The notes below the pieces were generated by a model, which saw only the letters and a list, made by a program, of their open reading frames with translations, was not told the origin of the DNA and did not search any database. Positions 6,519-31,766 of a stretch of 64,000 nucleotides of DNA are shown piece by piece. The DNA is from a bacterium (GTDB lineage Bacteria; Zhuqueibacterota; Zhuqueibacteria; Residuimicrobiales; Krinioviventaceae): positions 224,001 to 288,000 of the forward strand of contig CAXXMD010000003.1 in assembly GCA_963675755.2 (NCBI GenBank), given 5' to 3'. The position numbers were made by a program, and so were the translations under genes. Position 1 is the stretch's first letter. Each line of letters starts with the position of its first letter.

Positions 6519-8755
6519 TGAATTCAATGAAACGTTATTTAATATATCTACTAGCTATTCCACTCCTGATTATTAATTGTGGTCCGGGAGAGCAGCCCAT
6601 AACACTCATCAGTCCAAGCCAGATTTGCACTATTGTACTTGATCTGGGGAATTATGATGATGTCGTAAAAGCAAGTCAGGCTACAGATCAAAAAAATATC
6701 ACCCTTGACAGTCTTGACCAGGCTATTGCTATACACGCTTATGCTGCTCGTGAACTACAACACTATCTGGCTAAAATGCTGGAGTTGAGTACGCACGAGA
6801 TCCCCATTGTTGACGATAATAATATACCGGATGGCCCTATTATTTTTATTGGCTCCCCCCGTTCCGGAGGCAAACGCGAAGCAGTATACAAAAAATTGAG
6901 AAAACGCTGGAAAAAAACAAAATCCAAATCTCTGCAATGTTTTCGTCAGGATACTTTTTGGTTCAAGGAATCGCAAGACTTTTTGGTATTGAGTGGACGT
7001 ACCCCAACCGCGGTTCTCTATTCAGTATATGATTTTCTGGACAGGTTGGGTGTTCGCTGGATTTCCCCACAAGCCAGTGGTGAGATTGTGCCTAAACAGG
7101 GTGGCCTGGTCCTTCAACCCATTGCCAGATATTTTACACCGCAAATGAGACTACGTGGTTTTCTATATGATTATTTGGGAGAGATCCCAGCCTCGCAGCA
7201 ACTCACACCCGAATTTTTAACCTGGATGGGCAGAAACAGATTAAACCTGGCTAAATACAGTGACTCTACCAGGTATCTGTACAACAAACTGGGGATCAAA
7301 ACCACCAATGGCGATACCGAGCTCCTGAAAATGGCACTAAATCCGGATGCACCCTATCCTTACAAGCATAAAAATTTTGAGAATCCGGGAACATCAGAAC
7401 CGGATCCATACCCATTATCATCACAATTTGCTGGAGATCGGAATAACGATAATAACCTGTCTTATTTTGAAGCGCACCCGGAATGGTACCTGGTATCTTC
7501 CAAAGAACCAGTATTGTGCGTTTCTCAAAACACATTCATGTCAGAAATATTAAAACAAATTCAAAACCGTCTTGCAAACCAATGGAAAAACATTGATTAT
7601 ATAGAATTGTATAATATTAATCAATTGCCGTGGTGCTCTTGCAACGAATGCAGCAACCTGGGTAACGATACCAATAAATGGTTATACATGCTGCAAATTG
7701 TAAACACAGAAATCCAAAAATCAGCATACCCGAAAAAAATCATCGGACTGAATGACAAATATACAGTATCCCCCCCTGACCAGGAATTGCACGGCTTTGA
7801 TTATGATAACATCCAGGTATTCATCAGTCCTCACCATCGGTGTTACAACCACACTCTTTACGATGAAAAATGCAAAGTAAACTATAATATTGTGGAAATG
7901 TTACATAGCTGGCAAAACCAAAACAGCAATTTTGAAAACAGTATAAATGTTTGCGAATTGTATAATAACAGAGATTTTCAAAATCTGCCTTTATTATTTA
8001 CAACCGCCATGAACCTTGATATGCCCTTGTATCATGAACTCGGGATTAAAGGTATGGCCACTGAAAATCCATGGGTAACAAATGGTGGTGCTAATAATTT
8101 CATGAACTATCAATTGGCGCGACAAACCTGGCGTCAGCATGTGGATCTCGACTCTTTAAAAATAGAGTATATTGTTAACCAGTATCCTGGTGCATATCAG
8201 TTGATGCAAGAATATTACAATAAAATTGAAGAAGCCATGGCAAATATTGCCGCATGGAAATGGGACCTAGCAGATCAGGTTAACCGGGTTATTCTGGATT
8301 CTACCGCCCAGACGCTCTTACCCCTTGAAAATTTTGCAGATCATTTCACGCTCGATGAAACAACTTCCAATCCTCAAACAGGAACAAATTGGGAACGGAC
8401 ATATCAATTGATTTACGAGGTGCAATATATTCTGTACGAAGCACTGACAGGAGATATACCGCCACAAACCCAAAAGAGATTACTGGAATTGAATCAACAA
8501 AAGAAATATTCAGAATTAATGGTCAACCTGTACGACAATGTGATACGTTCGATGACCCTGGGACAAGATGAACCTGAAATGAAAATTGAATCTCTGATTC
8601 GTTTGGAAGAAATTGAGAACGAATTAAAAGATTTTACCATTACAGAGCCGGCCTTTGGTATAAAAAACGGACTTGAATCGTCTGGCATCCAAAAAGCAGT
8701 GAACCAACTGGTAATGGATAATCAGTCTGTAATCAATAAATACAAAACTCCATAG
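6518..8755 (+). CDS. DUF4838-like secreted/lipoprotein with glycoside hydrolase 20/67-like N-terminal domain
   Basis: AARELQHYL, YSVYDFLDRLGVRW, WMGRNRLN, YFEAHPEWY and WCSCNEC patterns; possible lipobox IINC. Confidence 0.65.
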   Translation: MNSMKRYLIYLLAIPLLIINCGPGEQPITLISPSQICTIVLDLGNYDDVVKASQATDQKNITLDSLDQAIAIHAYAARELQHYLAKMLELSTHEIPIVDDNNIPDGPIIFIGSPRSGGKREAVYKKLRKRWKKTKSKSLQCFRQDTFWFKESQDFLVLSGRTPTAVLYSVYDFLDRLGVRWISPQASGEIVPKQGGLVLQPIARYFTPQMRLRGFLYDYLGEIPASQQLTPEFLTWMGRNRLNLAKYSDSTRYLYNKLGIKTTNGDTELLKMALNPDAPYPYKHKNFENPGTSEPDPYPLSSQFAGDRNNDNNLSYFEAHPEWYLVSSKEPVLCVSQNTFMSEILKQIQNRLANQWKNIDYIELYNINQLPWCSCNECSNLGNDTNKWLYMLQIVNTEIQKSAYPKKIIGLNDKYTVSPPDQELHGFDYDNIQVFISPHHRCYNHTLYDEKCKVNYNIVEMLHSWQNQNSNFENSINVCELYNNRDFQNLPLLFTTAMNLDMPLYHELGIKGMATENPWVTNGGANNFMNYQLARQTWRQHVDLDSLKIEYIVNQYPGAYQLMQEYYNKIEEAMANIAAWKWDLADQVNRVILDSTAQTLLPLENFADHFTLDETTSNPQTGTNWERTYQLIYEVQYILYEALTGDIPPQTQKRLLELNQQKKYSELMVNLYDNVIRSMTLGQDEPEMKIESLIRLEEIENELKDFTITEPAFGIKNGLESSGIQKAVNQLVMDNQSVINKYKTP

Positions 8756-16797: not shown

Positions 16798-16818
16798 TTA
16801 TAAATGGAGGTATTCACT

Positions 16819-17136
16819 ATGCCGGTTAAACAAATAGCAGGGGTTCAGGTCGACCTTGATGATGAAGGATTCATGATCAATCCCGATCAATGGACTAGAG
16901 AAATAGCCGTTGAACTTGCAAAAGAAGAAGGTATAGATACTCTCACAGACGGTCACTGGAAAATCATTGATTTTGTAAGAAAAGATTCCAAAGAAAAAGG
17001 TCAAATACCTACAATACGCAGAATGAAAAACATAGGTGGCATAGCGACCAAAGATCTTTACGATCTTTTTCCGCAAGGTCCGGCAAAGAAATCTGCAAAA
17101 ATTGCAGGCTATCCTAAACCCAAGGGCTGTGTATAA
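16819..17136 (+). CDS. TusE/DsrC-family sulfur relay protein (single C-terminal Cys)
   Basis: DDEGFM...W, LTDGHWKIIDFVR, LFPQGPAK, PKPKGCV. Start at ATG 16819 behind GGAGG. Confidence 0.92.
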   Translation: MPVKQIAGVQVDLDDEGFMINPDQWTREIAVELAKEEGIDTLTDGHWKIIDFVRKDSKEKGQIPTIRRMKNIGGIATKDLYDLFPQGPAKKSAKIAGYPKPKGCV

Positions 17137-17151
17137 ACAAGGAGACGTTTA

Positions 17152-17631
17152 ATGGCTGATAACGAAAAGTCAAGAATAGAAAAAGTATCGATTGTGATCT
17201 CCCGTGGCTCACTTGATGGAGTTTATCCGGGATTGATTATGGCTAATGGTGCCCGTATGGAAGGTATTGATGCAACAATCTTTTTTACATTCTTTGGGCT
17301 GGAAGCCATTATGAAAAAACGTGCAGACAAACTCAAAGTATCAACTGTAGGGAATCCGGCAATGCACATGCCTACTATGGTTGGAATGCTGCCGGGAATG
17401 TCATCATTTGCAACGAGCATGATGAAAAAAGAAATGGATAAACTGGATATTCCCCCGGTAGGAGAATTTATTGAAATGATCTCTGATACCGGTGCAGATC
17501 TGTTTGCCTGTAAAGCAACCGTAGATATGTTCCATCTTTCAATTGATGACTTTCTCCCCCAGGTTGATGGAATTATCAATGTAGGAGAGTTTTACGAACG
17601 TTCTGCCAACGCGCAGATCATTTTTACATAA
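17152..17631 (+). CDS. DsrE2/DsrE/DsrF-like sulfurtransferase/peroxiredoxin-family protein
   Basis: SRGSLDGVYPGLIMANGA, FFTFFGL, LFACKATVDMF. Confidence 0.88.
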   Translation: MADNEKSRIEKVSIVISRGSLDGVYPGLIMANGARMEGIDATIFFTFFGLEAIMKKRADKLKVSTVGNPAMHMPTMVGMLPGMSSFATSMMKKEMDKLDIPPVGEFIEMISDTGADLFACKATVDMFHLSIDDFLPQVDGIINVGEFYERSANAQIIFT

Positions 17632-17633
17632 TC

Positions 17634-17668
17634 AAATGCGGGATGTATTTTCATCCCGCATTTTTTTT
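17634..17668 (+). terminator. Rho-independent terminator
   Basis: AAATGCGGGATG / CATCCCGCATTT followed by a T-run. Confidence 0.85.
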
Positions 17669-17777
17669 GCAATATTGTATTGTTTTTTGTAACTTTACTT
17701 ACTTGCCAAAACTGTTTTCTAAAAATTTACAATTTCAAAAATATGACAAACTAAAGTTAAACGAGTACGGAACGAAA

Positions 17778-19214
17778 ATGAAGAAAAAAGCATTAACATC
17801 TCTATCGATCTTGCTGACAATTATTATTGTCATCACAATCCCGGTAATCTGGTTGTTAAACCCATCTACAGAAGAAAAAGATGCCTGGGCCAATGTACCG
17901 AAAAGATTACCCCAAACTAGTCATGCCGATCTTATAAAGGGCCCCTTTAAAGACGGACCCTCTGTAACCCGGGCGTGTTTAGAGTGTCATCCTGATGCTG
18001 GTGAGCAGGTCATTCACTCTGCGCACTTTACCTGGGAAAGCCCGGCAATACAACTACCCGGTAGAGATAAACCGGTTGTTTTGGGTAAAAAACACGCAAT
18101 GAACAACTTTTGTATTGGTATTACCTCAAACTGGCCTCCTTGTACCGCATGTCACACCGGTTACGGTTGGGAAGACGATTCTTTTGATTTTACCAATCAG
18201 GAACTCATTGACTGTCTTGTCTGTCACGACCATTCCGGACAATATGTAAAATCCAAAGGCGGCTACCCTGCCCCGGATGTAGACCTGGTTGCGGTAGCAA
18301 AAAGTGTTGGCCCCACCACACGAGACAACTGTGGCGGTTGTCATTTTAGAGGTGGCGGCGGTAACGCAGTAAAACATGGTGATCTGGATGAAAGTCTCTA
18401 CAATCCCAATGAGAGTATCGATATCCATATGGGTAAATACAACTTTTTATGCACCGACTGTCACCAGACTGAAAACCACAACATTAAAGGCAGATCCATA
18501 TCTGTAAGTGCCGACAATGAAAATCAGGCTTATTGCACAGATTGTCACGATCAAAAAACGCACAAAGATGAACGTATTAACACACATACAGCTTCGGTTG
18601 CCTGCCAGACTTGTCACATCCCTCATGCCGCAGTCAAAGAAGCAACCAAAATGCATTGGGACTGGTCTGAAGCGGGTAAAGATTTACCCGAGAATCCTCA
18701 CGAATATTTAAAGATCAAAGGTCGCTTTGTATATGAAAAAAATATTCAACCCGATTATTTCTGGTTTAACGGTAATGCCAAACACTATGTAATGGGAGAC
18801 AAAATAGATCCGTCTCAACCCACATTAATGAACGAACCGGATGGCAGCATCAAAGATCCCAATGCCAAAATCTGGCCGTTTAAACTACATACTGCAAAAC
18901 AAATTTATGATCCGGTTAATAATTATTTACTGGTCCCCAAGACCTTTGGTAAAGGCGGTTTCTGGACTGAATTTGACTGGGAAAAAGCGGCTGAACTGGG
19001 TTCCGAGGCAACAGGCCTTGATTACAGCGGCCAATTTGGATTTACCAATACAGTCATGTTCTGGCCCATTACACATATGGTGACATCAAAGGACAAAGCA
19101 CTGCAATGTGTTGATTGTCATGGAGAAAGTGAAAATACAAGAATGGACTGGTCCGCTTTGGGTTACGATGGTGACCCCATGTTGACTGGTGGAAGAAAAA
19201 ATAAAAATCTATAA
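17778..19214 (+). CDS. Octaheme c-type cytochrome, tetrathionate reductase (OTR) family
   Basis: Eight CXXCH motifs (CLECH, CTACH, CLVCH, CGGCH, CTDCH x2, CQTCH, CVDCH), GKKHAMNNFCI, GGGGNAVKHGDLD. N-terminal anchor begins at MKKK (17778). Confidence 0.92.
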   Translation: MKKKALTSLSILLTIIIVITIPVIWLLNPSTEEKDAWANVPKRLPQTSHADLIKGPFKDGPSVTRACLECHPDAGEQVIHSAHFTWESPAIQLPGRDKPVVLGKKHAMNNFCIGITSNWPPCTACHTGYGWEDDSFDFTNQELIDCLVCHDHSGQYVKSKGGYPAPDVDLVAVAKSVGPTTRDNCGGCHFRGGGGNAVKHGDLDESLYNPNESIDIHMGKYNFLCTDCHQTENHNIKGRSISVSADNENQAYCTDCHDQKTHKDERINTHTASVACQTCHIPHAAVKEATKMHWDWSEAGKDLPENPHEYLKIKGRFVYEKNIQPDYFWFNGNAKHYVMGDKIDPSQPTLMNEPDGSIKDPNAKIWPFKLHTAKQIYDPVNNYLLVPKTFGKGGFWTEFDWEKAAELGSEATGLDYSGQFGFTNTVMFWPITHMVTSKDKALQCVDCHGESENTRMDWSALGYDGDPMLTGGRKNKNL

Positions 19215-19231
19215 ACCATAAAGGATTCGTA

Positions 19232-21865
19232 ATGCTAAGCAAACGCTTTATATTTATCACAATCTTTTTCGCGCTACTGACAGGCCAGGTTTTTTCCGAA
19301 TCCCTTCACCCGGATGTAAAGCTGCTTGACCAAAACGGTACTCCCGTTATTACCAGTGGTTTACCTGTATCTACAATGAAAACCTGTGGAACATGTCACG
19401 ATGCTGAATATATCGCATCTCACAGTTATCATAGCACCGTTGGTTTTGACAAAAATACAGATAATGAAACAACAGATCCCGGCTTCTTTAACAATTGGGA
19501 CCCTGTCATCTATCATCGCATGATGAATGATGAACTCAAAGATGGCAACCTGGGTCTTGCAAACTGGCTCATGACCTATGGTAAAAGGCACGTGGGTGGC
19601 GGCCCTGCTGAATTCAACCAGGCAATGAAACCGTTGAATGCTCCCAATGCTCAATCAAGTAAAACTGAAAACCACTGGCACAATCCCCAAACAGGTTCAA
19701 TCGAATCCTGGAACTGGCAAAATTCGGGCATAGTAGAGATGAATTGTTTTCTTTGTCACACACCCAATCCCGACAACCAGGCAAGAATGGAAGCGCTTGA
19801 GCAAGGCCACTTTAAATGGGCAAACACGGCAACATTAACCGGTATTGCGGTTAAAAGCGGTGACCGTTATCGCTACAATACCAACAGTATAAATCCGGAT
19901 GGTACTGTAAAACGATCAGTCTTTCAGGTTACAGATCCTTCGAATGAAAATTGCGGTCTCTGTCATGGCTTGGTTAAAGATGATGAATCCAATCCTGTTG
20001 TGCTTACCGAATGTACACCTGAAAATTGGTCTACCATGACTACCGGACAGATTTTCTCGCCGCAACGGATCTCTGACAGCGGATTGAATCTTGAAGATAA
20101 ATCTGATCTGGCTTATGCCTGGGATGTACACGCGGAAAGACTTGTAAATTGTGTGGATTGCCATTTTTCAATCAACAATCCCATCTATTATCAGGAATCA
20201 GCAAAAACCCGTCCTGCTCACCTGAATTTTGATGCACGCCGGATGGATATTGACGATTACCTGTTAAAACCCAGTCACGACTTTGCATTCGGCCCCGGCA
20301 ATCACAATCCTGAAAGCAATACATTTAGCAACAATATGAGAAGATGCGAGTCTTGCCATAATATTGAGGCAACACACGATTGGTTACCTTACAAAGAAAG
20401 ACATATGCAAACCATGATATGTGAATCCTGCCACATTCCTCATATTCGCTCAACTGCCAAACAGACTGTTGACTGGACAATGATTCATCCGGATGGCACA
20501 CCAAGAACCGAGTGCAGAGGTACGGATGCGTCTGCACCCAACAGCAATACATTATTAAAAGGATATCAACCCGTACTTTTGGGTCGTGTTGAACCGGATG
20601 GAAGCTCTCGCCTTGCTCCCTATAACCTGATCACTTCATGGTTTTGGGTACAGGGTGAAAATGAAGCACCTGTATTATTAAGCGATCTGAAAAAAGCGCT
20701 GTTAAATGGTGATGCTTTTGACTCTCAGATTGTCAAGTTCCTGGATGCTAATCAAAATGGTTCTCTTGAAGACAGTGAAATGGTGTTAAATTCTACTGAA
20801 AAAATAGAGTTTATAAAATCCCGACTTTCATCTATCGGATTGACCAATTTTGCAATCAAAGGTGAAGTGAATCCTTACGGATTACACCACAATGTTACAC
20901 ATGGTGACTGGACAACCCGTACATGCGAATCCTGTCACAGTAACAAATCTAAAATATCTCAACCCATGGTTCTTGCAAGCAGCTTTCCCCCGGTTGTTCC
21001 GCAAATGATCAATCGTGGATCAATAATACCCAAAGGCAAAGTCATCACAAAAAATAAAGTGCTGGTCTTTAAACCAGCACCGGATAGGAATGGATATTAC
21101 ATTTTGGGTCACGACAAAAGTATGGTTGCCCAGGTTATCGGCGCGTTAATATTCATATCCGTCATAATTGGTATTGCCATTCATGCAACACTGCGTGTAA
21201 TTGCAACGGCAAAACACACACATGAAAAAGGACCCTTTAAAAGCATATACATGTACACCGTTTATGAAAGGTTCTGGCATTGGATGCAGGCAATAGCCAT
21301 TATTGGTTTAATTTTTACAGGCTTGACTATCCACTCTCCATTGGTATTCAAGTTCATGCCCTTCCATGTTGCGGTAATTATTCACAATGTACTGGGTTTT
21401 ATTTTACTGGGTAATGCCTTTTTGGCTGCATTTTATCATTTTTCAAGTGGTAAAATCAAAAACTATTTGCCCGAACCCAAAGGATTTTTCAGTCAGGCTA
21501 TAGATCAAACCCTGTTTTACATCAAGGGCATTTTCAAAGGCCAGCCTCACCCCTTTGAAAAAGATATTGATAAAAAACTGAATCCATTACAAAAGATAAC
21601 TTATCTTATTATATTGAATGCATTGCTTCCTATACAAATCATTACCGGCATTCTGATCTGGGGAGCACAAAGATGGCCGGCATTGGCAGAATCGTTAGGT
21701 GGATTGCTTATATTGGTTCCCTTACACTCTTTGGTCGCGTGGTTCTTTGCTGCTTTTCTCATGCTGCATATTTATTTAACCACTACCGGTTACACACCCA
21801 CATCAGCTATTCAGGCAATGATAATCGGATGGGAAAAAGTTCATACAAATCATAATGGAGATTGA
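19232..21865 (+). CDS. Multiheme c cytochrome (7 CXXCH) fused to a cytochrome b membrane domain
   Basis: Signal peptide; CGTCH, CFLCH, CGLCH, CVDCH, CESCH x3; C-terminal YERFWHWMQA, IHNVLG, KLNPLQKITY, LHSLVAWFFAAFLMLHIYL. Confidence 0.88.
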   Translation: MLSKRFIFITIFFALLTGQVFSESLHPDVKLLDQNGTPVITSGLPVSTMKTCGTCHDAEYIASHSYHSTVGFDKNTDNETTDPGFFNNWDPVIYHRMMNDELKDGNLGLANWLMTYGKRHVGGGPAEFNQAMKPLNAPNAQSSKTENHWHNPQTGSIESWNWQNSGIVEMNCFLCHTPNPDNQARMEALEQGHFKWANTATLTGIAVKSGDRYRYNTNSINPDGTVKRSVFQVTDPSNENCGLCHGLVKDDESNPVVLTECTPENWSTMTTGQIFSPQRISDSGLNLEDKSDLAYAWDVHAERLVNCVDCHFSINNPIYYQESAKTRPAHLNFDARRMDIDDYLLKPSHDFAFGPGNHNPESNTFSNNMRRCESCHNIEATHDWLPYKERHMQTMICESCHIPHIRSTAKQTVDWTMIHPDGTPRTECRGTDASAPNSNTLLKGYQPVLLGRVEPDGSSRLAPYNLITSWFWVQGENEAPVLLSDLKKALLNGDAFDSQIVKFLDANQNGSLEDSEMVLNSTEKIEFIKSRLSSIGLTNFAIKGEVNPYGLHHNVTHGDWTTRTCESCHSNKSKISQPMVLASSFPPVVPQMINRGSIIPKGKVITKNKVLVFKPAPDRNGYYILGHDKSMVAQVIGALIFISVIIGIAIHATLRVIATAKHTHEKGPFKSIYMYTVYERFWHWMQAIAIIGLIFTGLTIHSPLVFKFMPFHVAVIIHNVLGFILLGNAFLAAFYHFSSGKIKNYLPEPKGFFSQAIDQTLFYIKGIFKGQPHPFEKDIDKKLNPLQKITYLIILNALLPIQIITGILIWGAQRWPALAESLGGLLILVPLHSLVAWFFAAFLMLHIYLTTTGYTPTSAIQAMIIGWEKVHTNHNGD

Positions 21866-21871
21866 TAATAA

Positions 21872-22402
21872 ATGAAAACCAATCAAATTGAAAACGGAAA
21901 ACCGTATATGAATCCCTACCTGGCAGGAACCCTGCTTGGGATCGTACTCTTTTTAGCGTTTTTTATCACAGGGAACGGATTGGGTGCATCCGGTGGAATT
22001 AACAGAATCTTACTCTATGTTGAAGACGCGGTAGCGCCTGCTCATGTAGACCATGTGCCCTATTTATTAAGCATGGCCGGTGGAGATAAAAATCCCCTGG
22101 ATCATTGGATCGTCTTTTTAACAATTGGCACCTTGATTGGAGGCTTTATCTCCGGCCTGATCCACAAACGGGTAAAATTGAAAACAGCCAAAGGCCCCAA
22201 TATTACCAACTGGCAGCGCTGGGTATTGGCGTTTGCGGGAGGTATATTTATGGGGTATGGCGCCAGAATGGCGCGAGGCTGTACTTCCGGTCAGGCACTC
22301 TCCGGAGGAGCGGTATTGTCTGCCGGAAGCTGGGCGTTCATGTTTGCGGTTTTTGCAGGTGGTTACGCGGTTGCATGGTTTGTTAGAAAAATCTGGAATT
22401 AA
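21872..22402 (+). CDS. YeeE/YedE thiosulfate-transporter-family membrane protein
   Basis: NPYLAG, GLGASG, YGARMARGCTSGQALSG. Confidence 0.9.
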   Translation: MKTNQIENGKPYMNPYLAGTLLGIVLFLAFFITGNGLGASGGINRILLYVEDAVAPAHVDHVPYLLSMAGGDKNPLDHWIVFLTIGTLIGGFISGLIHKRVKLKTAKGPNITNWQRWVLAFAGGIFMGYGARMARGCTSGQALSGGAVLSAGSWAFMFAVFAGGYAVAWFVRKIWN

Positions 22403-22420
22403 AAAAGGACGGATAAAAAA

Positions 22421-23647
22421 ATGGCACCTTTCCCTATAGATGCAATTCTTGGTAAATTCGGAGCGTATCTGATCTACTTGTTGATCGGAGTTGGCTTTGG
22501 CTCTGTTTTAGAAATGGCAGGTTTTGCCCACTCGCCCAAACTTGCCGCTCAATTTTATTTCAAAGACATGACGGTACTAAAAGTCATGTTTACTGCAATT
22601 ATTGTTGCAATGACACTCATATTTCTCTCATCAGGCTTTATGATGCTCGACTTTGACAAGTTGTGGGTGAACCCTACCTACCTCTGGCCCGGCATTATAG
22701 GCGGATTGATTATGGGTGTAGGTTTTATAATTGGTGGATTTTGTCCCGGAACATCACTGGTTGCGTTAGCTACCTTGAGAGTAGACGGTTTCTTTTTTGT
22801 ACTGGGCGCAACCACAGGTATCTTTATTTTTGGTGAAACGGTAAGCAATTATACAGGTTTCTGGACATCTTCCTACCTGGGACGAATTATACTGCCAGAA
22901 GTCTTTCACGTTCATACTGGCGTAATTGTACTGCTCGTCATTCTCATGGCTCTCTTTATGTTTAAAGGTGGAGAGATGCTTGAAGCTGCTATTGGAAAGA
23001 AAACAATCACAAAATCAAAATGGAAAGTTGCAGGTGCCTCTGCCCTTGTTGTCTTGTCATTGTTGGGCATTGTGATTGGTCAACCTTCTGTACAGGACAA
23101 GTGGGAAATGGTCTCCAAAACCAAACAGGCACTTTTGGATGATCGCCAGGTACAAATTCATCCCGGTGAATTGCTTGACCTGATGTATGATGACAGCAAA
23201 AATCTGGTTTTGCTGGACGTACGGCCGGAAAAAGACTATAATATATTCCACATAAAAAACGCGAAAATGGTTGAATTAAATGAAATACCACAATACGCTT
23301 CAGAACTACTGCATGAACCAGCCAATACGGTAATTGTAACTATATGCAATAATGAAAAATTGTCTACTATTGCATGGCAGTGGTTAACCGCGCTAAACGT
23401 TCCCAATGTATATATTCTTGAAGGTGGCATTAACAACTGGCTTGATATTTTCGGGCATGAAGGTCATGAGAATTGTTATACCGTTAAAGACAAAGACGAT
23501 ACTTCTTTACGGCATATTTTCAACTCAGCATTAGGATCACGTTACGAAGCGGCAGAGCCGGAACCGGAACACCAGGAATCAAAACTGTTATTTGAACCCA
23601 AAGTAAAAATTGCCACCCAGGTAAGACGTCAAGGTGGTTGCGGATAA
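22421..23647 (+). CDS. YeeE/YedE membrane domain fused to a rhodanese domain
   Basis: KDMTVLKVMFTAI, GGFCPGTS; rhodanese features LLDVRPEKDY...HIKNA, ICNNE, YILEGGINNW; ends in GGCG. Confidence 0.88.
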   Translation: MAPFPIDAILGKFGAYLIYLLIGVGFGSVLEMAGFAHSPKLAAQFYFKDMTVLKVMFTAIIVAMTLIFLSSGFMMLDFDKLWVNPTYLWPGIIGGLIMGVGFIIGGFCPGTSLVALATLRVDGFFFVLGATTGIFIFGETVSNYTGFWTSSYLGRIILPEVFHVHTGVIVLLVILMALFMFKGGEMLEAAIGKKTITKSKWKVAGASALVVLSLLGIVIGQPSVQDKWEMVSKTKQALLDDRQVQIHPGELLDLMYDDSKNLVLLDVRPEKDYNIFHIKNAKMVELNEIPQYASELLHEPANTVIVTICNNEKLSTIAWQWLTALNVPNVYILEGGINNWLDIFGHEGHENCYTVKDKDDTSLRHIFNSALGSRYEAAEPEPEHQESKLLFEPKVKIATQVRRQGGCG

Positions 23648-23677
23648 AAAAAAAGCCCTTTAAAAAGGGCTTTTTTT
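23646..23677. terminator. Bidirectional terminator between convergent genes
   Basis: A-run-GCCCTT-TAAA-AAGGGC-T-run. Confidence 0.85.
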
Positions 23678-24266
23678 ATTTCAAAGGTTGTACAGGAATT
23701 CCTCGCCTGAATACCCTGATTTTTCCATTATCAAAATTCAATTTTAATGATAAAAGCAGCATTTGTGCCAGAGGATCTTTATCTGCATTATACGCATTCA
23801 CCATAACACCAAAACGTACAGATTTCGATTGTCCCGATTCTATCAGCAAATTAACATCTGCCTGGGTATCAAAATTTTGTTCTGCTAATGATTTTATTAA
23901 CCGGGGATTTTGCTGAATTTCGCTTATGGATGGTTTTACAAGAAAAGCTTTGCTGGATAGATTAACATCCAGAATTTTTTGTCCCGCTAAAGGAATCAAA
24001 AATCCTGCACCATCAGAAATCTTTTCAATGGATTTTAAAGAAAAACTGGCTGGTCCCTGATTTGTGATGCTTGTTTCATATATGGCTAAAAATGCCCACG
24101 ATTGTGAAGCTTCATCGTAAACCGGTGTCATCAATGTGTTACGTTCTTCAAGTTCAATATCAGCAAGCGCCAATTGATAAGCCAGGTTTGCTTTTAACAA
24201 ACCCAGTACGGCAATACTCAGGGCTATAATAGCAATAGCGTATAATGTGATCGTTTTCCATTTCAT
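23676..24266 (-). CDS. Hypothetical membrane-anchored protein
   Basis: N-terminal hydrophobic segment; GGAG RBS; start is either ATG 24266 or TTG 24269/24272. Confidence 0.7.
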   Translation of the reverse strand: MKWKTITLYAIAIIALSIAVLGLLKANLAYQLALADIELEERNTLMTPVYDEASQSWAFLAIYETSITNQGPASFSLKSIEKISDGAGFLIPLAGQKILDVNLSSKAFLVKPSISEIQQNPRLIKSLAEQNFDTQADVNLLIESGQSKSVRFGVMVNAYNADKDPLAQMLLLSLKLNFDNGKIRVFRRGIPVQPLK

Positions 24267-24320
24267 CAACAAATCTCCGTTTTAGAATTTTAATAATATA
24301 GGAAAACGAAAAATAAATTC

Positions 24321-25148
24321 CTATTTTATTAATAATATTTTATGAACTGCAAACATCTGCCCCAAATTGACGCGCACATAATACACACCGGATGGAACAG
24401 AATTCCCGTCCATATCAACACCAGACCATAAATATTCATACGAACCCATTTCAAGCTTTCCAAAATTATGAAACGAAATCCTTTTACTTGAAACATCATA
24501 AATTTCAAGATGTACATTTTCACTTTTAGAAATATCAAAATGTATCCGCGTTGAACTGTTGAAAGGATTTGGATAGTTCCTGACAACCAGATTCTGGCTA
24601 ACCGGATATTCCGGTTCTTTAATTTTTGTATCGATATTCCGTACAACTGCACGGAGGAGAAAATCAAGATCTTCTCTCAGCCACCAGCTTCAGCAGTCGG
24701 TATCGTAAGAATGTAGACTTATGGGTTCCTGATCATCAACACCAATTGCAAAAAAGCTGTTCGGGTTTTGTGATAGAACAAAAAAGAAATCATTATCAAC
24801 ATTGATATCCAAAGCACTGAGATCATATTCATTCCATCCGACATGCCCACCAGATATTACAAACGGATCAACGAGATCATTTCCATCCCAGGGTTTACCA
24901 TCCAAATCAGCAGGTAATATTGACAACTTGAATGCCGTAGTCTCATTTACTTCGGGCATATAATATTTAATTTTTATCAATTTTGCGGGATATTGGGACG
25001 GAGAGAATTTTGTAACGACATATATACCATTTTGTCCCATAATAAATGAATCATGAGCAATGCCATCGTCATAATAAAGCTCTTCATCTGCAAAAGAAAT
25101 TGAAAAAAGAGTTAAAACCAACAGACACATCAAAAAAACTTTGTTCAT
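24321..25148 (-). CDS. Secreted T9SS cargo protein with in-frame TGA (candidate selenocysteine, Cys-Sec motif), 275 aa
   Basis: GAGG RBS and signal peptide MNKVFLMCLLVLTLFSISFA. TGA at 24690-24692 follows DTDC; the same frame continues 122 codons: SWWLREDLDFLLRAVV...NYPNPFNSSTRIHF...WSGVDMDGNSVPSGVYYVRV...KILLIK, TAG at 24321. Confidence 0.8.
24645..24689 (-). promoter_or_regulatory. SECIS-like mRNA hairpin immediately 3' of the in-frame TGA
   Basis: Manual folding: GAGAAGAU-CUUG-AUUUUCUC upper stem at +14..+33, extendable to +12/+36, plus lower stem AGCUG/CAGUU (+1..+5 with +41..+45). Confidence 0.5.
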
Positions 25149-25174
25149 CGAATCCTCTCTGTAAAATTTCTGAT

Positions 25175-25208
25175 AAAAACACCAAAGGCCCCATAAGGGG
25201 CCTTTGGT
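25175..25208 (-). terminator. Rho-independent terminator after the PorV-family gene
   Basis: ACCAAAGGCCCC-4nt-GGGGCCTTTGGT, followed on the minus strand by GTTTTT. Confidence 0.8.
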
Positions 25209-25234: not shown

Positions 25235-26254
25235 TTATTTCATATAGATGCTCCAGGAGATTCTGTGTACAGAGCCAAAAAACTCGCCAAAGTCACCATA
25301 GGAGTAATCAAATTTTACACCATAGTTACCCAAGGGTTTGTTGACACCAACACCAAAGGTCAATCCTTCTTCATCATAATTGAATTTGTAACCACCGCGC
25401 AGGAACAGCATATTACTCATACCATATTCAGCACCAAGGTGAATACGTTCAGAGTAATCTCTGGGGTGAATTGCATCTACTGCAACTGTCAGTTTATGCA
25501 TATCACTGTCTGCAAACAAGGTCATTACATCCATTGCCATACCAATATTGAACATCAAAGGCAATTCAAAACGTTCAAACACATAACGACCCTGGCGGGA
25601 AAAGTTGCGGATTGACATAGCAACGCGCAAATCTTTCCAACCTGTGTAATACAGGGTACCAAAATCAAATGCATTTACAGTTTGTTCATTTTGTACAACG
25701 GTTTCACCATAGACTTCATGCAAGATCAAGCTTTCATACAAGTCCTGTTTAACCATTTTTATCTGGGCACCGATTGAAAATTGGTTGCTGATACGACGAC
25801 CATAAGATAATCCTACAGCATATTCGCCAACTTCAAAGTCACCAAGGTCTTCATAACCTTGGTTTCTCAGTATAGGATCAGAACCATCATACGGACGTGT
25901 TTCTGTCATTGTACCATAGTCCATATAGATCAAGCTAACACCAAAAGTACCCCAGTTTTTAAAACCGTAAGCAACACCACCGGCATAATGTTTAATGTCG
26001 GCAATCCAATTGGTTTGGTTCATTGCAACTTCAAAGCCATCAACAAAAGCGAGACCAGCCAGATTCGAAAACATGGATGTGGCATCATCAGTAACGGCTG
26101 CACTGGCACTACCCATTGCAGAAGCACGACCACCTACATCAATTTTTAAGAACGGCATACCCGTTTGACCTAATTTATCAATAGCTTGTGACGCAGGACT
26201 AAGTCCCAATATTAATAGCGCCGTCACCAGCAAATAAAAAACAGTTTTTTTCAT
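25235..26254 (-). CDS. PorV/PorQ-family outer-membrane beta-barrel
   Basis: KLGQTGMPFLKIDVGGRASAMG, WIADIKH, HPRDYSERIHLGAEY, LRGGYKFNYDEE, HRIS. Confidence 0.9.
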   Translation of the reverse strand: MKKTVFYLLVTALLILGLSPASQAIDKLGQTGMPFLKIDVGGRASAMGSASAAVTDDATSMFSNLAGLAFVDGFEVAMNQTNWIADIKHYAGGVAYGFKNWGTFGVSLIYMDYGTMTETRPYDGSDPILRNQGYEDLGDFEVGEYAVGLSYGRRISNQFSIGAQIKMVKQDLYESLILHEVYGETVVQNEQTVNAFDFGTLYYTGWKDLRVAMSIRNFSRQGRYVFERFELPLMFNIGMAMDVMTLFADSDMHKLTVAVDAIHPRDYSERIHLGAEYGMSNMLFLRGGYKFNYDEEGLTFGVGVNKPLGNYGVKFDYSYGDFGEFFGSVHRISWSIYMK

Positions 26255-26290: not shown

Positions 26291-28348
26291 TTATTTAACC
26301 ACTACAAATTTTCCAATTGCAGTTTCACCCGTTGGGCTGCCTTGAGGACCATCTAATTCTTCAACAACAAACAGATAGATACCGCTCACAATTCTCATTG
26401 AAGAGAAAGTGTCCTGACGGGTCCATTCTTCGTCACCTGTTCCTTCGTTATGATACAGAGTCTGTACCAGGTCACCTGTCATTGTGTAGATGTGGATATT
26501 ACAATAAGCAGGTGTATTGAGGAATTTAATTTGATCTTCTTCATATTTGTAGCGGGAAAGGGCATTAAAAGGATTCGGTACAACAACTACATTGTCTTTC
26601 CAGTTTGCATCCGGTGAACGTGTCGGTGCAACAGCTTCATCAACTCGATTATCTCCGGATTTCAACTGACCGGAACGGTTCAGCAGCATACTGCTTTCGG
26701 TTCCATCAGTGGTATACGCGGTTACATAATACCAATAGTTTTGTCCGCGGATTACATCCGTATCAACATAACTATGAGTTGACGCATTAACATCTGCAAG
26801 CAGTACAAATGTTGTATCAGTTGGTATAGCCAATTCCGCTGGGCGGTAATAGTTACGATAGATCTTGTATCCGGCAAGACCCGGGAACCCATCAGCTTCT
26901 GTGCCCCAATCAATTTCAATTTGATCAGGAACTGAAGTTAATGTTAATGAAGGAGATGGTGGTGTAGCAGGAACCATCAACTCACCAGTACCCCTGAATA
27001 CGTCGCTGTTTTCCCAGATTCTTTTCAACATTCCGGCCTTTTTAAAAACAGAATCTTTACCGGTATCAATGATCATGTCTTTTTGTACCTGGCTCAGAAA
27101 ACTTCCTTGAACTCCAAGATCCATTACATCATAAGGCATTTCAACATTAAGCTGACTAGAGTATCCGGCTTTATAAGCACGACCGGCATCAATAGCCAGA
27201 CGGTGGTTAATAGAGCCACCAATGTAAGCAACTACAATACGCACATCTTCACCTGGAGCCATCTGGTAAGGACCAAAATGGAATGAACCGGGTTTTGCCT
27301 GTTCTTCAACAGGATTACTAACATGTGCTACCCAACTGCCGATCAAGCTGCGATACATACCGCTTTCATCAGTCTGCAGACTGGGGTTAGCTGTATTCCA
27401 GGGGCCAGACATGAATTCATAAATCTCGTCATGGGTTGCTTCACTCAATGAAGGAAGTAACTCACGCTGTGACCAACCCGCTTTATGCGGTTGTGCAGGA
27501 TCATCAGTATCATCGGTAGTGCTTTTATCCGCATGAAGTACCTGCATACCCATATATTGTGGTTTTTCAAAGTTACCCCAGATCAGATCAGGGTTGGCTT
27601 TGTCATCTTCAGGAATTTCAGGTTCGTCTGCTTCCCACATGTAGTAGAGACGCAGTGAATCTTGACCACTTGCATAACCAGCGCCATAGTAATCTGACCA
27701 CAAGTTACCGGGATAGTGATCACCTGTCATCATTTCAGTAACGATACTGAAATAAACATCAGTTTTAGCTTCGTTAGATGCGTTTTCAAAAACCCATTCA
27801 TAAACAACAAAGTCATCATATTCTTGATTGGCACACGCGTAAACCCAACGTTCTACATCAATACCGGTCCAGGTATTCCACTTGCCATAGACCATACCGT
27901 CTGCAGGAATTGATTCGTCAACAGGGTCGGTTTTGTACTGTGCATCAGTCCAGTCACGGCCATCAATCATTCTGATAGGTGGCGCATATTTAAAAACACG
28001 TTTAAAAGCACCGCTTACGGGCACAATTACGTTTTCAATTTCAGTAAATTTGCTTTGTATACCCTGGGCAATTTTATGTTCCCAAGGTACACCATTACCA
28101 TCTGTCCAACTCATTTTAACGCCAACATTGATACCGTTAACAGATGATACTTCTCTGGCATCACTATCAAGATTATTATTCCAGGTTTGGGGGTATTGCA
28201 TTGACATTGCACTGATCGTCTCCCCCGGTGTCACCTGGATATCACCGAATCTCAACTGTCTGGTAGACGACTGACCCAATAGTGTTGAATTTATGAGCAA
28301 CAGCAGAACAAGAACAAATAATCCGCCGTACTTGAAAAGTTTTTTCAT
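26291..28348 (-). CDS. Secreted protein with FN3-like domain and T9SS-type C-terminal domain
   Basis: Signal peptide; GYKIYR...YVDTDV...YWYYVTAY; VVVVPNPF...IKFLNTP..CNIHIYTMTGDLVQTL...VSGIYLFVVE...GKFVVVK. Confidence 0.85.
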   Translation of the reverse strand: MKKLFKYGGLFVLVLLLLINSTLLGQSSTRQLRFGDIQVTPGETISAMSMQYPQTWNNNLDSDAREVSSVNGINVGVKMSWTDGNGVPWEHKIAQGIQSKFTEIENVIVPVSGAFKRVFKYAPPIRMIDGRDWTDAQYKTDPVDESIPADGMVYGKWNTWTGIDVERWVYACANQEYDDFVVYEWVFENASNEAKTDVYFSIVTEMMTGDHYPGNLWSDYYGAGYASGQDSLRLYYMWEADEPEIPEDDKANPDLIWGNFEKPQYMGMQVLHADKSTTDDTDDPAQPHKAGWSQRELLPSLSEATHDEIYEFMSGPWNTANPSLQTDESGMYRSLIGSWVAHVSNPVEEQAKPGSFHFGPYQMAPGEDVRIVVAYIGGSINHRLAIDAGRAYKAGYSSQLNVEMPYDVMDLGVQGSFLSQVQKDMIIDTGKDSVFKKAGMLKRIWENSDVFRGTGELMVPATPPSPSLTLTSVPDQIEIDWGTEADGFPGLAGYKIYRNYYRPAELAIPTDTTFVLLADVNASTHSYVDTDVIRGQNYWYYVTAYTTDGTESSMLLNRSGQLKSGDNRVDEAVAPTRSPDANWKDNVVVVPNPFNALSRYKYEEDQIKFLNTPAYCNIHIYTMTGDLVQTLYHNEGTGDEEWTRQDTFSSMRIVSGIYLFVVEELDGPQGSPTGETAIGKFVVVK

Positions 28349-28412: not shown

Positions 28413-31400
28413 TCAATAGAAATTAATTTTGATACCGAAAAAGATATCACGTTTTTCCAGGAATGTCCATGGAGTAAACGACGGCATTACGATATAATCT
28501 TTACCGTTGCTGTCTGTTGGGTAATCTCCGGGACGATCTCCACCTTCAATGTCCAATGAATTCATATATGCTCTGAATTCACCGTTCCACCATTTGTGAT
28601 CGTTCCATGCCCAGTTTCCATTAACACCTGTGAGAACTCTGTTATCACCATAAGAATAATCATCTGGATAAGTCATATTCTTGTTATTAAATACGTTAAA
28701 AACGTCTACGTAAAATACGGTTTCCATGCCCCATTTATGGAACAGACGTTTGGTGAAACGCATATCTGTTCTTTGGTAGGGACGCCAGCGGATATTATCT
28801 TCTACGTATGGAATACCTTTGGGATTCCAGGTGAATACTTCACCTGCACGCCAATAGTACAAGAAATTCAGGTTCATGTCAGCAAAAACCGGGTAACCTG
28901 CAAGTCTGTAACCAAAATCTGCTGGTGTATGAAAATCTACATTAACTTTCCAAACCGGACGAGCAACCGGTTGGGTAATATCTGTGTTCCACAATGTGTT
29001 ACCACTGTTGGGATCTTCACGGTAATACTGAGTACCGTAACGACCGCGACTTGAGATCATGTATTCATAACTGGTAAAACCAGTTACAAATGTACCACGA
29101 CGCAGCTCGGCCATCAATTCAACACCGCGAATATCGCGATACTGGTTGTTTTCCGGGAAACGTACATCCGAACCTTCCATAGGATAGTAACGGATTTCGT
29201 TATATTCATCAGACACATCTTTGTAATAACCGGTAGCGGTCAACTGGAACATGTCCATTAAATTATGAGCATAACCCACTTCGTACATGATGGTTTTGGG
29301 AGGTACTAAACTGGGGTTACCCAGATTTGAAATTCTCCAGCCATCTGTTGTACGTTGGCGATAATAGTACAAATCATACGCACTGGGCCATTTGTAAAAG
29401 TGGCCATAGTTGAAAAAGATTTTTGCGTCGTTTGAAATAGGATGAGAAATACCAACACGCGGGCTAATACGCGCCTGAGTAATGCCTTCCCAATTCAACA
29501 TATCCAGACTGTCAGACTTGCCTGCCTGCAGAAATCTGGAATAGGGAGATGCATCAGGATCATCTACATCTGTATTATTGATCATATCACCGCGTTTTTG
29601 AACGTCTAAACGCAAACCCAGGTTAGCAATCATACCCTGGAATTCAAGTTTATCTTGAACAAACAAAGCGCCTGACCATGGTTTTGCTTTGGCAAAGTAC
29701 CAGCTACCACCATTTACGGAGGGATCGATTTCGCCATATTCACCATGAATTTTATCATGCTGCAATTCAATACCGGCTTTGATCTGGTTAAAACGGTTAA
29801 CCTGACTGGTAATAGCAGCTTTTAATACATATTTACGGAAAATAGAATTGTTTTCACGCAAGTTACAAGATTCCATACGGTATTCACCGGTTACATCACG
29901 CCAGTTCACAGGACCATAGCCCCATGGACCTTCATCATACCAGTATTTACCAATCTTGACACGTGCGTAATTCTGCCAGTTTTCCCAATCATAATCACCA
30001 TTGTCAATATGTTCCTGGATTTCATCAGCAGTACCTAAACGGCCATACTGTAAATGGGTTGCACCCCATTCATTACCCTGGATTTTAACTGTGTTACGAT
30101 GATACATATCGTGACCTTCTTCAGTCAGCAAGTGGCTGAATGTAACTTCATAAAATGTTGAAGGAGACAATACATGGGTGAACTGGAAGCCCATTGAAAC
30201 ACGTTCCTGAACAGCGGTAACGTTACAGTAGGGATACCACATTTTGTTAGCGCTAGACATACTATTGGGAACATCGCTTTCAAAACCAGAGCTGTTGCTT
30301 GAGAAGGGGTTATTGGTAATTTCAATACCAATACCACCACCCTGGCCACCACTGGTACCTGATTGCTTACCATATAAAAAGTTGAGATTCAACTTCATGG
30401 ATTCACTCAGGTTTGTGGTCAGCTTGAGGTTAGTTAAGCGATCACGATAATAGTCTTGTGGATAAGTACGTGCGTAATAGGTTTTTTCTTCTCTATGTGA
30501 AACAAAGAATTTCATGTCATTATAGAATGGAATAGGTCCGCCAAATGTAAAGGAACCGACAAAATCACCTTCATCACCATATTCGTATACGTCATCTTCA
30601 TCGGGATCAATACCGGTAACATCGGCATTTACTTTACCTTGTTCTGCAAGGCTTAACAACAATTCCAAATTATCTTTAGATCTGTGGCGCCACAAGTACA
30701 GTGCCAAATTTTCATAAGGTTCACCATAGTGAGGATCACCAGGCTGCAGGGTACCATTGGTTCCCAAAACCCATTTGGAAGAGTCCCACCAGTTAGACAG
30801 TTCACTACCGTTTGCGTCAACGGGAATACCATTTGCGCTCACTTCAACACCTGAATATTTGAACCAACCGGGGAAAAACTGACTTGCTGTACCAACTTCA
30901 CCCATACCACCTTCACGGTAATATCCGGTCCACGCACCGTCTTTGGCATAAAGAAAAGGGCGAACCAGGGGAGAATCTTTACCATAGATCATGGGGCCAA
31001 AATGTTTTACGGCAGCTGGGCTGTATTTAAAATCAATACTTCCGGTATAACGATCGCCACCTTCTTTGGTAACAACATTGATCAAGCCTGAACGAACATT
31101 ACCATATTCAGCATTGAAACCACCGGTGATAACCTGAATTTCCTGCACTGCGTCCATGTTAATTTTCATGTATGGACGGTTACGGATTTCATCTGTCATT
31201 GCCATACCATCGGTGATCATTGCACCATTGGTATAATCCTGACCGCGGAAACGCGGGTGAGATGCGTTAGCACCAAAACCGGAAATACCAACCTGCGCAT
31301 GCATAACATTTGCAAGGTCTTTGTATGCAGCATTTTCAAGTTGTTCGGGGGAAATAATTTGTTGGGTGCTGGAAACATCGAGGGGAACAATTGCGCGTTC

Positions 31401-31766
31401 GGCAACTACTGTAACTTCCTGAGAAGCTTCCAGAACTTTTTCTTCGAGTTTAAAATCTGCGACCGTTGTGCGGTCAACGTTTACACCTACTCCTGTAAGT
31501 TTAAGAGGTGTGTAACCGATCATTGTAGCGGTTAATGCATATTGTCCGGGACGAACATTGATGATAAAATAATAACCATCAAGATCTGTTGCAGCACCCA
31601 TCTGGGTACCTTCAATCACAACATTAACGCCAGGGAGTGGCTCCCCTGTTTTTGCGTCTGTTACTCTACCTGATATTTTACCGGTTGTTGCCGAAAAACC
31701 CGTACCGGCAATTAACAGGCCTAGTATAAATACACAGGCGAGTTTAAATATTACACTTCTCTGCAT
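28413..31766 (-). CDS. TonB-dependent receptor with CarboxypepD_reg-like N-terminal domain
   Basis: TTGKISGRVTDAKTGEPLPGVNV, ITGGFNAEYGNVRSGLINVVTKEG, SPRVGISHPIS, FNYGHFY; AAAGGAGG RBS. Confidence 0.93.
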   Translation of the reverse strand: MQRSVIFKLACVFILGLLIAGTGFSATTGKISGRVTDAKTGEPLPGVNVVIEGTQMGAATDLDGYYFIINVRPGQYALTATMIGYTPLKLTGVGVNVDRTTVADFKLEEKVLEASQEVTVVAERAIVPLDVSSTQQIISPEQLENAAYKDLANVMHAQVGISGFGANASHPRFRGQDYTNGAMITDGMAMTDEIRNRPYMKINMDAVQEIQVITGGFNAEYGNVRSGLINVVTKEGGDRYTGSIDFKYSPAAVKHFGPMIYGKDSPLVRPFLYAKDGAWTGYYREGGMGEVGTASQFFPGWFKYSGVEVSANGIPVDANGSELSNWWDSSKWVLGTNGTLQPGDPHYGEPYENLALYLWRHRSKDNLELLLSLAEQGKVNADVTGIDPDEDDVYEYGDEGDFVGSFTFGGPIPFYNDMKFFVSHREEKTYYARTYPQDYYRDRLTNLKLTTNLSESMKLNLNFLYGKQSGTSGGQGGGIGIEITNNPFSSNSSGFESDVPNSMSSANKMWYPYCNVTAVQERVSMGFQFTHVLSPSTFYEVTFSHLLTEEGHDMYHRNTVKIQGNEWGATHLQYGRLGTADEIQEHIDNGDYDWENWQNYARVKIGKYWYDEGPWGYGPVNWRDVTGEYRMESCNLRENNSIFRKYVLKAAITSQVNRFNQIKAGIELQHDKIHGEYGEIDPSVNGGSWYFAKAKPWSGALFVQDKLEFQGMIANLGLRLDVQKRGDMINNTDVDDPDASPYSRFLQAGKSDSLDMLNWEGITQARISPRVGISHPISNDAKIFFNYGHFYKWPSAYDLYYYRQRTTDGWRISNLGNPSLVPPKTIMYEVGYAHNLMDMFQLTATGYYKDVSDEYNEIRYYPMEGSDVRFPENNQYRDIRGVELMAELRRGTFVTGFTSYEYMISSRGRYGTQYYREDPNSGNTLWNTDITQPVARPVWKVNVDFHTPADFGYRLAGYPVFADMNLNFLYYWRAGEVFTWNPKGIPYVEDNIRWRPYQRTDMRFTKRLFHKWGMETVFYVDVFNVFNNKNMTYPDDYSYGDNRVLTGVNGNWAWNDHKWWNGEFRAYMNSLDIEGGDRPGDYPTDSNGKDYIVMPSFTPWTFLEKRDIFFGIKINFY

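Follow-up and report, generated by a model that had tools for sequence, protein, structure and literature searches.

The window analyzed here is a stretch of 64,000 nucleotides (contig CAXXMD010000003.1, positions 224,001 to 288,000; assembly GCA_963675755.2) from a bacterium of the Krinioviventaceae, phylum Zhuqueibacterota. Its minus strand carries a gene with an in-frame TGA that we interpret as the selenocysteine (Sec) codon of a predicted substrate of the type IX secretion system (T9SS). The complete gene (24321..25148) comprises 275 codons, from an ATG at 25148-25146 to a TAG stop at 24323-24321. The table 11 listing of open reading frames (ORFs) terminates the upstream ORF, which reads ...SLHSYDTDC, at 24690; beyond the TGA (24690..24692), 122 further in-frame codons are open. 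Translated with TGA as U, 24321-25148 gives 275 amino acids with a single non-standard codon, Sec153. The codon before it, TGC at 24693..24695, encodes Cys152, the sole Cys past the signal peptide; Cys8 lies inside the latter. The in-frame TGA, the open codons, the 275-aa product and the lone Cys of the mature protein had all been described in an initial annotation of this DNA, and we reproduce them from the sequence; the coordinates given there were right, but the minus strand was unstated.

The predicted protein consists of an N-terminal export signal, a β-sandwich and a sorting tail. A Shine-Dalgarno-like GAGAGGA (25153..25159, minus strand) precedes the ATG by 4 nt. Residues 1-20 (25089..25148; MNKVFLMCLLVLTLFSISFA, then DEE) form a putative signal peptide, judged by eye from a hydrophobic N-terminus with an SFA-DEE site; residues 3-14 are helical in the structural model described below, and the N-terminus is hydrophobic in all orthologs too. 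The lectin-like β-sandwich domain spans residues 21-172 (24633..25088) and contains the UGA. It is followed by a T9SS type A C-terminal sorting domain (residues 192-275; 24324..24575), which scores 31.8 bits with TIGR04183 (cut-off 23) and 30.8 bits with PF18962 (cut-off 27). The complete sorting tail that had been recognized here, and likened to that of a gene ending near window position 2109, thus passes both curated cut-offs, and the other gene (G000:C3:225843-226106, where G000 is the genome of this organism) bears the same kind of tail. For residues 1-190 neither Pfam nor NCBIfam 20.0 has a matching model, and an NCBIfam scan of the selenoprotein returned T9SS-tail and FlgD-like matches only.

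A stop-tolerant six-frame search, run on 60 relatives and then on all 167 genomes of the phylum, located the domain in 24 of the 167 (one of these, G162, counts only in this tally and among the Cys-less forms described below). Eight genomes, G000 included, have a single TGA at the identical aligned site; they span six families and at least two classes, at 33-87% identity. The site reads YDTDC-U-SWW in G000 and G001 (same genus, 87% identity), in G034 and G036 (another family, 36-37%) and in G054 (33%), YDSDC-U-SWY in G009 (38%), LYNGA-U-GDW in G123 and YCYCT-U-TGW in G063, a member of another class. All eight genes are standalone and encode ~275-320 aa, with a downstream frame that is open and conserved, free of frameshifts and closed by a complete T9SS tail.

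Homologs in which Cys replaces Sec support the same codon assignment. Five standalone homologs (G011, G044, G049, G076 and a paralog in G001) have Cys-Cys at the site (DCCGW, second codon TGC), as do the database representatives P0004 and P0007. In alignment A1 the residues D151, C152, U/C153, W155, D162, R166, P193, N194, P195, W241, S253, G254 and Y256 are invariant; since these fall both 5' and 3' of the codon, conservation lies on both sides of it. Homologs with TGC-TGA or Cys-Cys at the aligned site, which the initial annotation had named as support, therefore exist, and the replacements by Trp, Gly, Ser or Arg that it had named as refutation do not occur among the close standalone homologs. 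Within the standalone clade of the tree, Sec and Cys forms are intermixed and mostly unresolved. Domains with neither Cys nor Sec (...RSWDFDGQNW...) belong to long multidomain T9SS proteins and form a separate clade (support 97/91).

The family extends well beyond these genomes. A profile of the N-terminal domain, compared with 1.84 billion representative proteins, gave 1142 matches at E <= 0.001, 17 of them at E <= 1e-30, and 24 representatives were fetched from among the best 150. At least 13 database clusters (13 of the 24 fetched) are gene calls of 148-175 aa in which the match ends at the final residue, just before the site. Their endings are YDTDC (six clusters), FDSDC, WDTDC, WDSDC, YNTDG, YETDG, LYNGA and YYFST, so that the last residue is Cys in nine, Gly in two, Ala in one and Thr in one; a further six of the 24 are full-length Cys-Cys forms. 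The record title of one deposited 155-aa short form is 'hypothetical protein [candidate division KSB1 bacterium]', which identifies the lineage and shows that read-through is unannotated there. The vicinal Cys-Sec motif proposed for this protein is thus present and common, occurring in six of the eight genomes and nine of the 13 cut-off clusters, but it is not universal: Cys152, invariant in alignment A1, gives way to Gly, Ala or Thr in some wider members. What stays constant throughout the family is the predicted Sec and not its pairing with Cys. Three other searches added little. When metagenomes were scanned for a pattern of 16 bases that includes the TGA, a profile filter recognized no family member among 80 fetched loci, the pattern being too unspecific; a Cys-Cys peptide pattern, which could not match Sec forms, recovered only two already-known loci from the genome contigs; and a protein homolog search with residues 20-175, limited by its word index, gave one same-genus ortholog among 83 candidates.

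The genome (6.48 Mb, 98% complete) encodes the machinery for Sec insertion. A check for selA, selB, selD and tRNA-Sec, proposed with the first description of the gene, finds all four: the tRNA-Sec scores 68.1 bits and is called tRNA-SeC with anticodon tca by ARAGORN, selA scores 580 bits, selB 371 bits and selD, of the Sec type and itself with one in-frame TGA, 377 bits. The two ordinary selenoprotein genes of this genome encode a peroxiredoxin (T-F-V-U; G000:C3:1158861-1159259, plus strand) and SelD (VKCAG-U-ASK; G000:C3:1425405-1426334, minus strand); no FdhA is present in it. Across 11 other genomes holding family members, selA occurs in 11/11 and tRNA-Sec in 10/11, the single miss being 73% complete; for the seven other Sec-form genomes the counts are 7/7 and 6/7, with the miss in the same 73%-complete genome. 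The other 149 T9SS-tail matches listed for G000 contain no internal stop, which argues that UGA is not generally reassigned.

Two conserved hairpins follow the TGA, where a single stem-loop had been noted before, and together they show covariation. These candidate Sec insertion sequence (SECIS) elements lie 3' of the codon in all eight Sec genes. Helix 1 (24657..24676, minus strand) has 8 bp and a loop of 4-6 nt and starts 13 nt past the TGA, or 16 nt past it in G063, where an additional codon is present. Helix 2 (24638..24655, minus strand) has 7 bp and the loop AGUU, replaced by GGUC in G054. Counted from the codon, helix 2 forms 7/7 pairs in all eight Sec genes versus 2-5/7 in the five Cys genes, and helix 1 forms 5-8/8 versus 0-5/8. 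In the eight-sequence alignment 95% of the positions of both helices are paired, versus 46-57% with the 3' arm shifted 1-3 columns along; the covariation score was reached by 0/500 shuffles, and three pairs change on both sides. Helix 1 varies among A-U, G-U and G-C, and pairing in helix 2 is complete (100%), with a central pair that is CG in three genes, GC in two, UA in two and UG in one. Both central columns fall on third codon positions, one of an Arg and one of a Val codon, where changes are synonymous, and the covariation therefore preserves an RNA pair. The Arg codon after RAVV supplies the 3' arm, and this residue is found in 8/8 Sec genes and 0/5 Cys genes; it appears to be a trace that the RNA element has left in the coding sequence. 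Taken with the machinery and the homologs, the hairpins lead us to conclude that UGA153 is almost certainly decoded as Sec by SelA, SelB, SelD and tRNA-Sec of this genome under the direction of a SECIS, which would be one or both of the hairpins.

An AlphaFold 2 model built from a 44-row alignment (mean predicted local distance difference test, pLDDT, 90.8) was used in a fold search of 48,161 PDB representatives that is independent of Foldseek. Residues 19-172 have the fold of the lectin-like domain of Cwp84 from Clostridioides difficile (4ci7_A; Z 16.4, root-mean-square deviation 2.3 Å over 146 residues), and residues 182-275 match the C-terminal domains of PorU (6za2, Z 10.6) and PorZ (5m11, Z 9.4). 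In this model Cys152 and Sec153 occupy the turn of a β-hairpin between strands 147-150 and 155-158. Strands 155-158 and 165-171, both encoded after the UGA, complete the sandwich, in keeping with the earlier suggestion that the W...DFLLRAVV segment is its closing strand; a 152-aa product would therefore be an incomplete domain. The likeness to Cwp84 covers 146 of ~152 residues, and there too the lectin-like domain is an accessory domain of a surface protein. In contrast, sequence identity is 10%, and we saw no report of a Cys-Sec or Cys-Cys hairpin for Cwp84. The Pfam model of that domain (Lectin_like, PF18560) scores none of the 44 members above its cut-off of 27 bits and matches only one of them at all, at 22.3, so the relation is one of fold and not of family membership. 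A PDB sequence search with the domain profile returned only a collagen adhesin at E 0.0098, which is not meaningful. A Foldseek likeness of the whole two-domain model to GH2 glucuronidases and the Vpr peptidase (E ~1e-6) has TM-scores of 0.2-0.25 and is superseded by the domain-level search.

The genes upstream of the selenoprotein gene, all on the minus strand, are conserved with it. Directly upstream lies a gene for an outer-membrane protein of the PorV/PorQ family (25235..26254; NF033709, 203.7 bits, cut-off 90), preceded by one for a ~690-aa protein of no known family (26291..28348; no Pfam or NCBIfam match, 48-53% identity across families). The first gene of the cluster (28413..31766) encodes a SusC-like TonB-dependent receptor, identified by CarboxypepD_reg, Plug and barrel domain matches. 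A PorV-family gene precedes the selenoprotein gene in 7/7 evaluable Sec loci, including the 3.7-kb contig of G036, where it is directly upstream; G009 is left out, as its contig ends there. The full trio precedes the gene in six genomes (G000, G001, G034, G054, G123 and G063), with receptors of 1063-1124 aa, unknown-family proteins of 685-728 aa and PorV/PorQ proteins scoring 177-204 bits with NF033709. These partners are more conserved (45-61% identity) than the selenoprotein (33-38%). The ~690-aa protein always sits between the receptor and the PorV-family gene; those that resemble it in the atlas are unnamed, being either hypothetical or fn3 proteins, and occur most often in Fidelibacterota. 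Its AlphaFold 2 model, from a 6-row alignment, has a pLDDT of 45 and is unusable, and its C-terminus shares with the selenoprotein tail only a 13-residue stretch around PNPFN, which does not establish a T9SS tail. Between the PorV-family and selenoprotein genes lies a very stable hairpin resembling an intrinsic terminator (25181..25208, minus strand; 12 bp, 8 of them GC, then a T-run; z -5.5). About 32 nt remain between it and the ATG, with no promoter-like site there, and expression of the selenoprotein gene may depend on terminator read-through.

On the other side, 48 nt downstream, an ORF of 198 aa (23676-24272, minus strand) has an N-terminal hydrophobic helix and no family match; its counterpart in the same-genus genome has 197 aa, and it does not stand beside the other Sec genes. 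A sulfur-handling locus follows at 16804-23647 (plus strand) with genes for a DsrC-like and a DsrE-like protein, a 523-aa multihaem cytochrome c, an 877-aa cytochrome b561-domain protein and two YeeE/YedE (Sulf_transp) proteins, one fused to rhodanese. The initial annotation placed the candidate next to both this locus and a PorV gene. Both do adjoin, but the sulfur locus is syntenic with the selenoprotein gene only within the genus and is therefore probably not functionally linked; we reject that link. Further pairs of ~1100-aa and ~700-aa genes lie near the Sec cluster in G054 (L080:11257-16758) and G034 (L079:11538-14738), and the arrangement of SusC-like receptor, T9SS cargo and PorV-family protein may be a general module of the phylum resembling polysaccharide utilization loci.

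The genome also encodes the T9SS itself, with two PorU homologs (884 and 877 bits), SprA (518 bits) and the PorV-family gene. The PorU sortase genes stand in tandem at C3:1311408-1318919. The cargo set is very large: a first look gave 267 tail candidates, and the 150 scored all have E <= 3.3e-9. Domains, machinery and synteny together make it likely that the product is exported by the T9SS. It would cross the inner membrane through the Sec translocon and then take the type IX route, probably ending attached to the surface; a candidate for its handling is the PorV-family protein, whose gene is the next one upstream.

The Cys-Cys homologs stand in other gene contexts. Those of G011 and the G001 paralog (L083, L087) lie with genes for an ArsR/SmtB regulator, an ArsP_1 permease, an ArsC-like reductase (low-molecular-weight phosphatase) and TolC; the best NCBIfam matches of the permease, SaoE and the SO_0444 Cu/Zn efflux family, are both sub-threshold. 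Those of G076, G044 and G049 directly adjoin a gene that appears to encode a second type of T9SS-exported selenoprotein, with an in-frame TGA in W-U-P-x-C (L086:1822-4020, plus strand, in G076; L085:8819-~10990, plus strand, in G044; L084 ~6405-8470, minus strand, in G049). This LVIVD/ResA-TlpA-like protein combines an LVIVD β-propeller, a choice-of-anchor D domain and a thioredoxin fold of the ResA/TlpA-like kind with a T9SS tail, and its TGA falls in the active site, W-U-P-x-C-G-P. Both neighbor contexts fit an exposed reactive thiol or selenol.

Several observations count against decoding as Sec or limit its support. For eight or nine of the 13 short database clusters the TGA and the downstream frame are presumed. 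Rfam, searched at E up to 10 over 24300-25200, gave two chance matches and no SECIS family, and since to our knowledge Rfam has no general bacterial SECIS model, this null says little. Folding energies relative to synonymous recodings are modest and separate the genes poorly (z of -0.5 to -3.5 for Sec genes, -0.1 to -1.8 for Cys genes), and because the peptide DLLLRAVV is itself conserved, nucleotide conservation is partly due to coding. The loop of helix 2 begins 41 nt past the UGA, farther out than the 16-37 nt within which search tools for bacterial SECIS elements operate. The SECIS geometries of the selD and peroxiredoxin genes of G000 differ, with unlike distances between hairpin and UGA, and thus do not indicate which helix binds SelB. 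The alternatives fare worse. If the UGA were a true stop, the protein would be the 152-aa product and the downstream frame the decaying remnant of a pseudogene or of a recent nonsense mutation. Table 11 gene calls do end at the codon, and the deposited 155-aa form bears the name hypothetical protein; however, the TGA recurs at the same site in eight genomes of 33-87% identity with the ~120-codon frame and its T9SS tail intact in every one, the Cys-Cys homologs run on uninterrupted, and truncation would remove the last two strands of the sandwich, making this very unlikely. We found nothing to support an error of sequencing or assembly at 24690-24692, which is hardly conceivable given the same codon in independent assemblies of seven other species and a ~90%-identical contig from another study that spans the site, where, among the 40 of its 71 differences that were listed, none changes this codon. 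Selenium-free read-through, by insertion of a near-cognate Trp or Cys or by a lineage-wide reassignment of UGA, would likewise keep the downstream frame under selection, but UGA is not generally reassigned across the 149 other listed T9SS-tail matches, the full Sec machinery is present, the conserved hairpins absent from the Cys genes fit a SECIS, and alternation with Cys specifically is a hallmark of Sec; this, too, is very improbable. The earlier reading of a 275-aa C152-U153 selenoprotein therefore has the support of Sec machinery, Sec/Cys homologs and two-sided conservation, and we consider it highly probable that decoding, export and position hold jointly, in a genuine exported selenoprotein with Sec in a hairpin turn.

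The function of this exported selenoprotein can be proposed only tentatively. The role we favor, though at less than even odds, is that Sec153 captures a thiophilic ligand at the surface, which would be a soft metal, metalloid or chalcogen species, and works alongside the ~690-aa protein and the SusC-like TonB-dependent receptor of the conserved cluster. A selenolate would bind such a ligand tightly and would resist being irreversibly oxidized in the extracellular environment. Because four of the 13 short clusters have no Cys before the site, the essential chemistry must fall to Sec by itself; by the same count, the vicinal dyad cannot be the universal mechanism, which tells against this proposal. 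So do LacI-type regulators, which flank the TonB cluster in three of five genomes beyond the same-genus pair. GH28, sulfatase and an Fe/B12-type ATP-binding cassette (ABC) importer are also encoded in the flanks, varying among genomes, and regulators, GH28 and sulfatase point to glycans over metals; a glycan-linked role is likewise suggested by the lectin-like fold together with the nearby sugar regulators. In G054 an opposite-strand gene intervenes between the PorV-family and selenoprotein genes; with the terminator-like hairpin in G000, this makes co-transcription doubtful, and we therefore speak of a cluster and not of an operon. The main alternative, which we hold to be rather doubtful, is that the Cys-Sec hairpin is a redox centre cycling between selenolate/thiolate and a vicinal selenylsulfide, for thiol-disulfide exchange with surface or substrate proteins or for scavenging of peroxide and other oxidants, and perhaps recycled by a T9SS-exported partner of thioredoxin fold. 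The W-U-P-x-C gene beside the Cys-Cys homologs of G076, G044 and G049 would suit such a partner. A precedent is the vicinal Cys-Sec (Gly-Cys-Sec-Gly) of mammalian thioredoxin reductase, a redox centre able to form an eight-membered selenylsulfide ring; unlike the protein described here, however, that enzyme is a cytosolic flavoenzyme whose motif sits on a flexible tail at the C-terminus, and neither its sequence nor its fold nor its decoding system is related. Most uncharacterised selenoproteins are held likely to be redox proteins in the available part of a review (PMC13188914). On the other hand, no such oxidoreductase gene stands beside the Sec forms in the flanks examined, tblastn of G000 with the oxidoreductase part finds ordinary CxxC proteins only, the Gly-, Ala- and Thr-Sec members lack a vicinal Cys, and in some of them the part ahead of the UGA contains no other Cys, and the fold is of the lectin-like and not of the thioredoxin type. 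The genes around the Cys-Cys homologs are in keeping with either extracellular redox or soft-metal binding, the two roles the initial annotation had put forward for the selenoprotein.

With few exceptions, the selenoproteins known from bacteria are redox enzymes of the cytoplasm or periplasm, and most of them have thioredoxin-like folds. The closest parallels in motif are the SAO system's CU-motif selenoproteins and HgcA, which likewise have Cys-Sec with Cys-Cys in non-Sec homologs and database entries cut at the CU site. In the available part of Haft's preprint, SaoB and SaoC face the cell exterior and work with transporters, CU-motif proteins are proposed to be soft-metal ligands, CU and CC motifs mark heavy-metal interaction, and CU is described as rare among selenoproteins. 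The present family has no sequence relation to these and falls outside NF040727, NF040728, NF040734 and NF040863 in the NCBIfam scan. It differs further in its lectin-like sandwich, in its T9SS route, in having a TonB-dependent receptor as partner where the SAO system has an ABC transporter, in its occurrence in KSB1-type Gram-negatives where the others are mostly from Firmicutes, and in that its Cys is not universal. Outer-membrane selenoproteins as such are already known, namely the TonB receptors NF049946 ('CU motif-type') and NF049945 ('FCYXU motif-type') (PMC12013277, PMC13188914). Like them, the present family would place Sec at the outer membrane in connection with TonB-dependent uptake, but there it lies in the receptor barrel and here in a separate small T9SS cargo, a 275-aa sandwich. 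The neighboring SusC-like receptor has no in-frame stop and reaches 21.8 bits against the NF049946 cut-off of 700. As T9SS type A cargo (TIGR04183/PF18962) the protein is otherwise conventional, with a tail above cut-offs, a C-terminal domain folded as in PorU and PorZ, and PorU, SprA and PorV-family genes in the same genome.

The family was previously unlisted, being absent from Pfam, from NCBIfam 20.0 and from the inventory of 119 prokaryotic selenoprotein families in the available part of the May 2026 review (PMC13188914), which includes no T9SS cargo and no lectin-like sandwich; supplementary tables of the cited papers may list further predictions. A literature search for T9SS cargo together with selenocysteine found no substantive link, and a KSB1 genomics paper, in its available part, mentions selABD genes only. 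The finding adds a well-supported family to the selenoproteome, from KSB1-type bacteria, and puts the predicted Sec on a sandwich of lectin-like fold that the type IX system would carry to the cell surface and that is encoded in a conserved cluster with a TonB-dependent transporter. It also corrects a systematic mis-annotation, in which at least 13 clusters appear in silico as shortened 'hypothetical proteins' without a sorting signal; T9SS cargo lists drawn from table 11 gene calls miss such proteins. The family further offers a concrete, testable case of selenium chemistry outside the bacterial cell. A more far-reaching picture, which we consider conceivable though rather unlikely to hold in all its parts, is that of a first family of type IX-secreted surface selenoproteins, in which a lectin-like scaffold with a lone, solvent-exposed selenolate, usually paired with Cys, would capture a thiophilic substrate (a soft metal, metalloid or reduced chalcogen) and pass it to a dedicated SusC-like TonB-dependent transporter, with a private PorV-family protein docking the selenoprotein and perhaps also the ~690-aa protein. 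If this is true, then, together with the W-U-P-x-C oxidoreductases of related genomes, it would mean that KSB1-type bacteria run an extracellular selenium-based chemistry.

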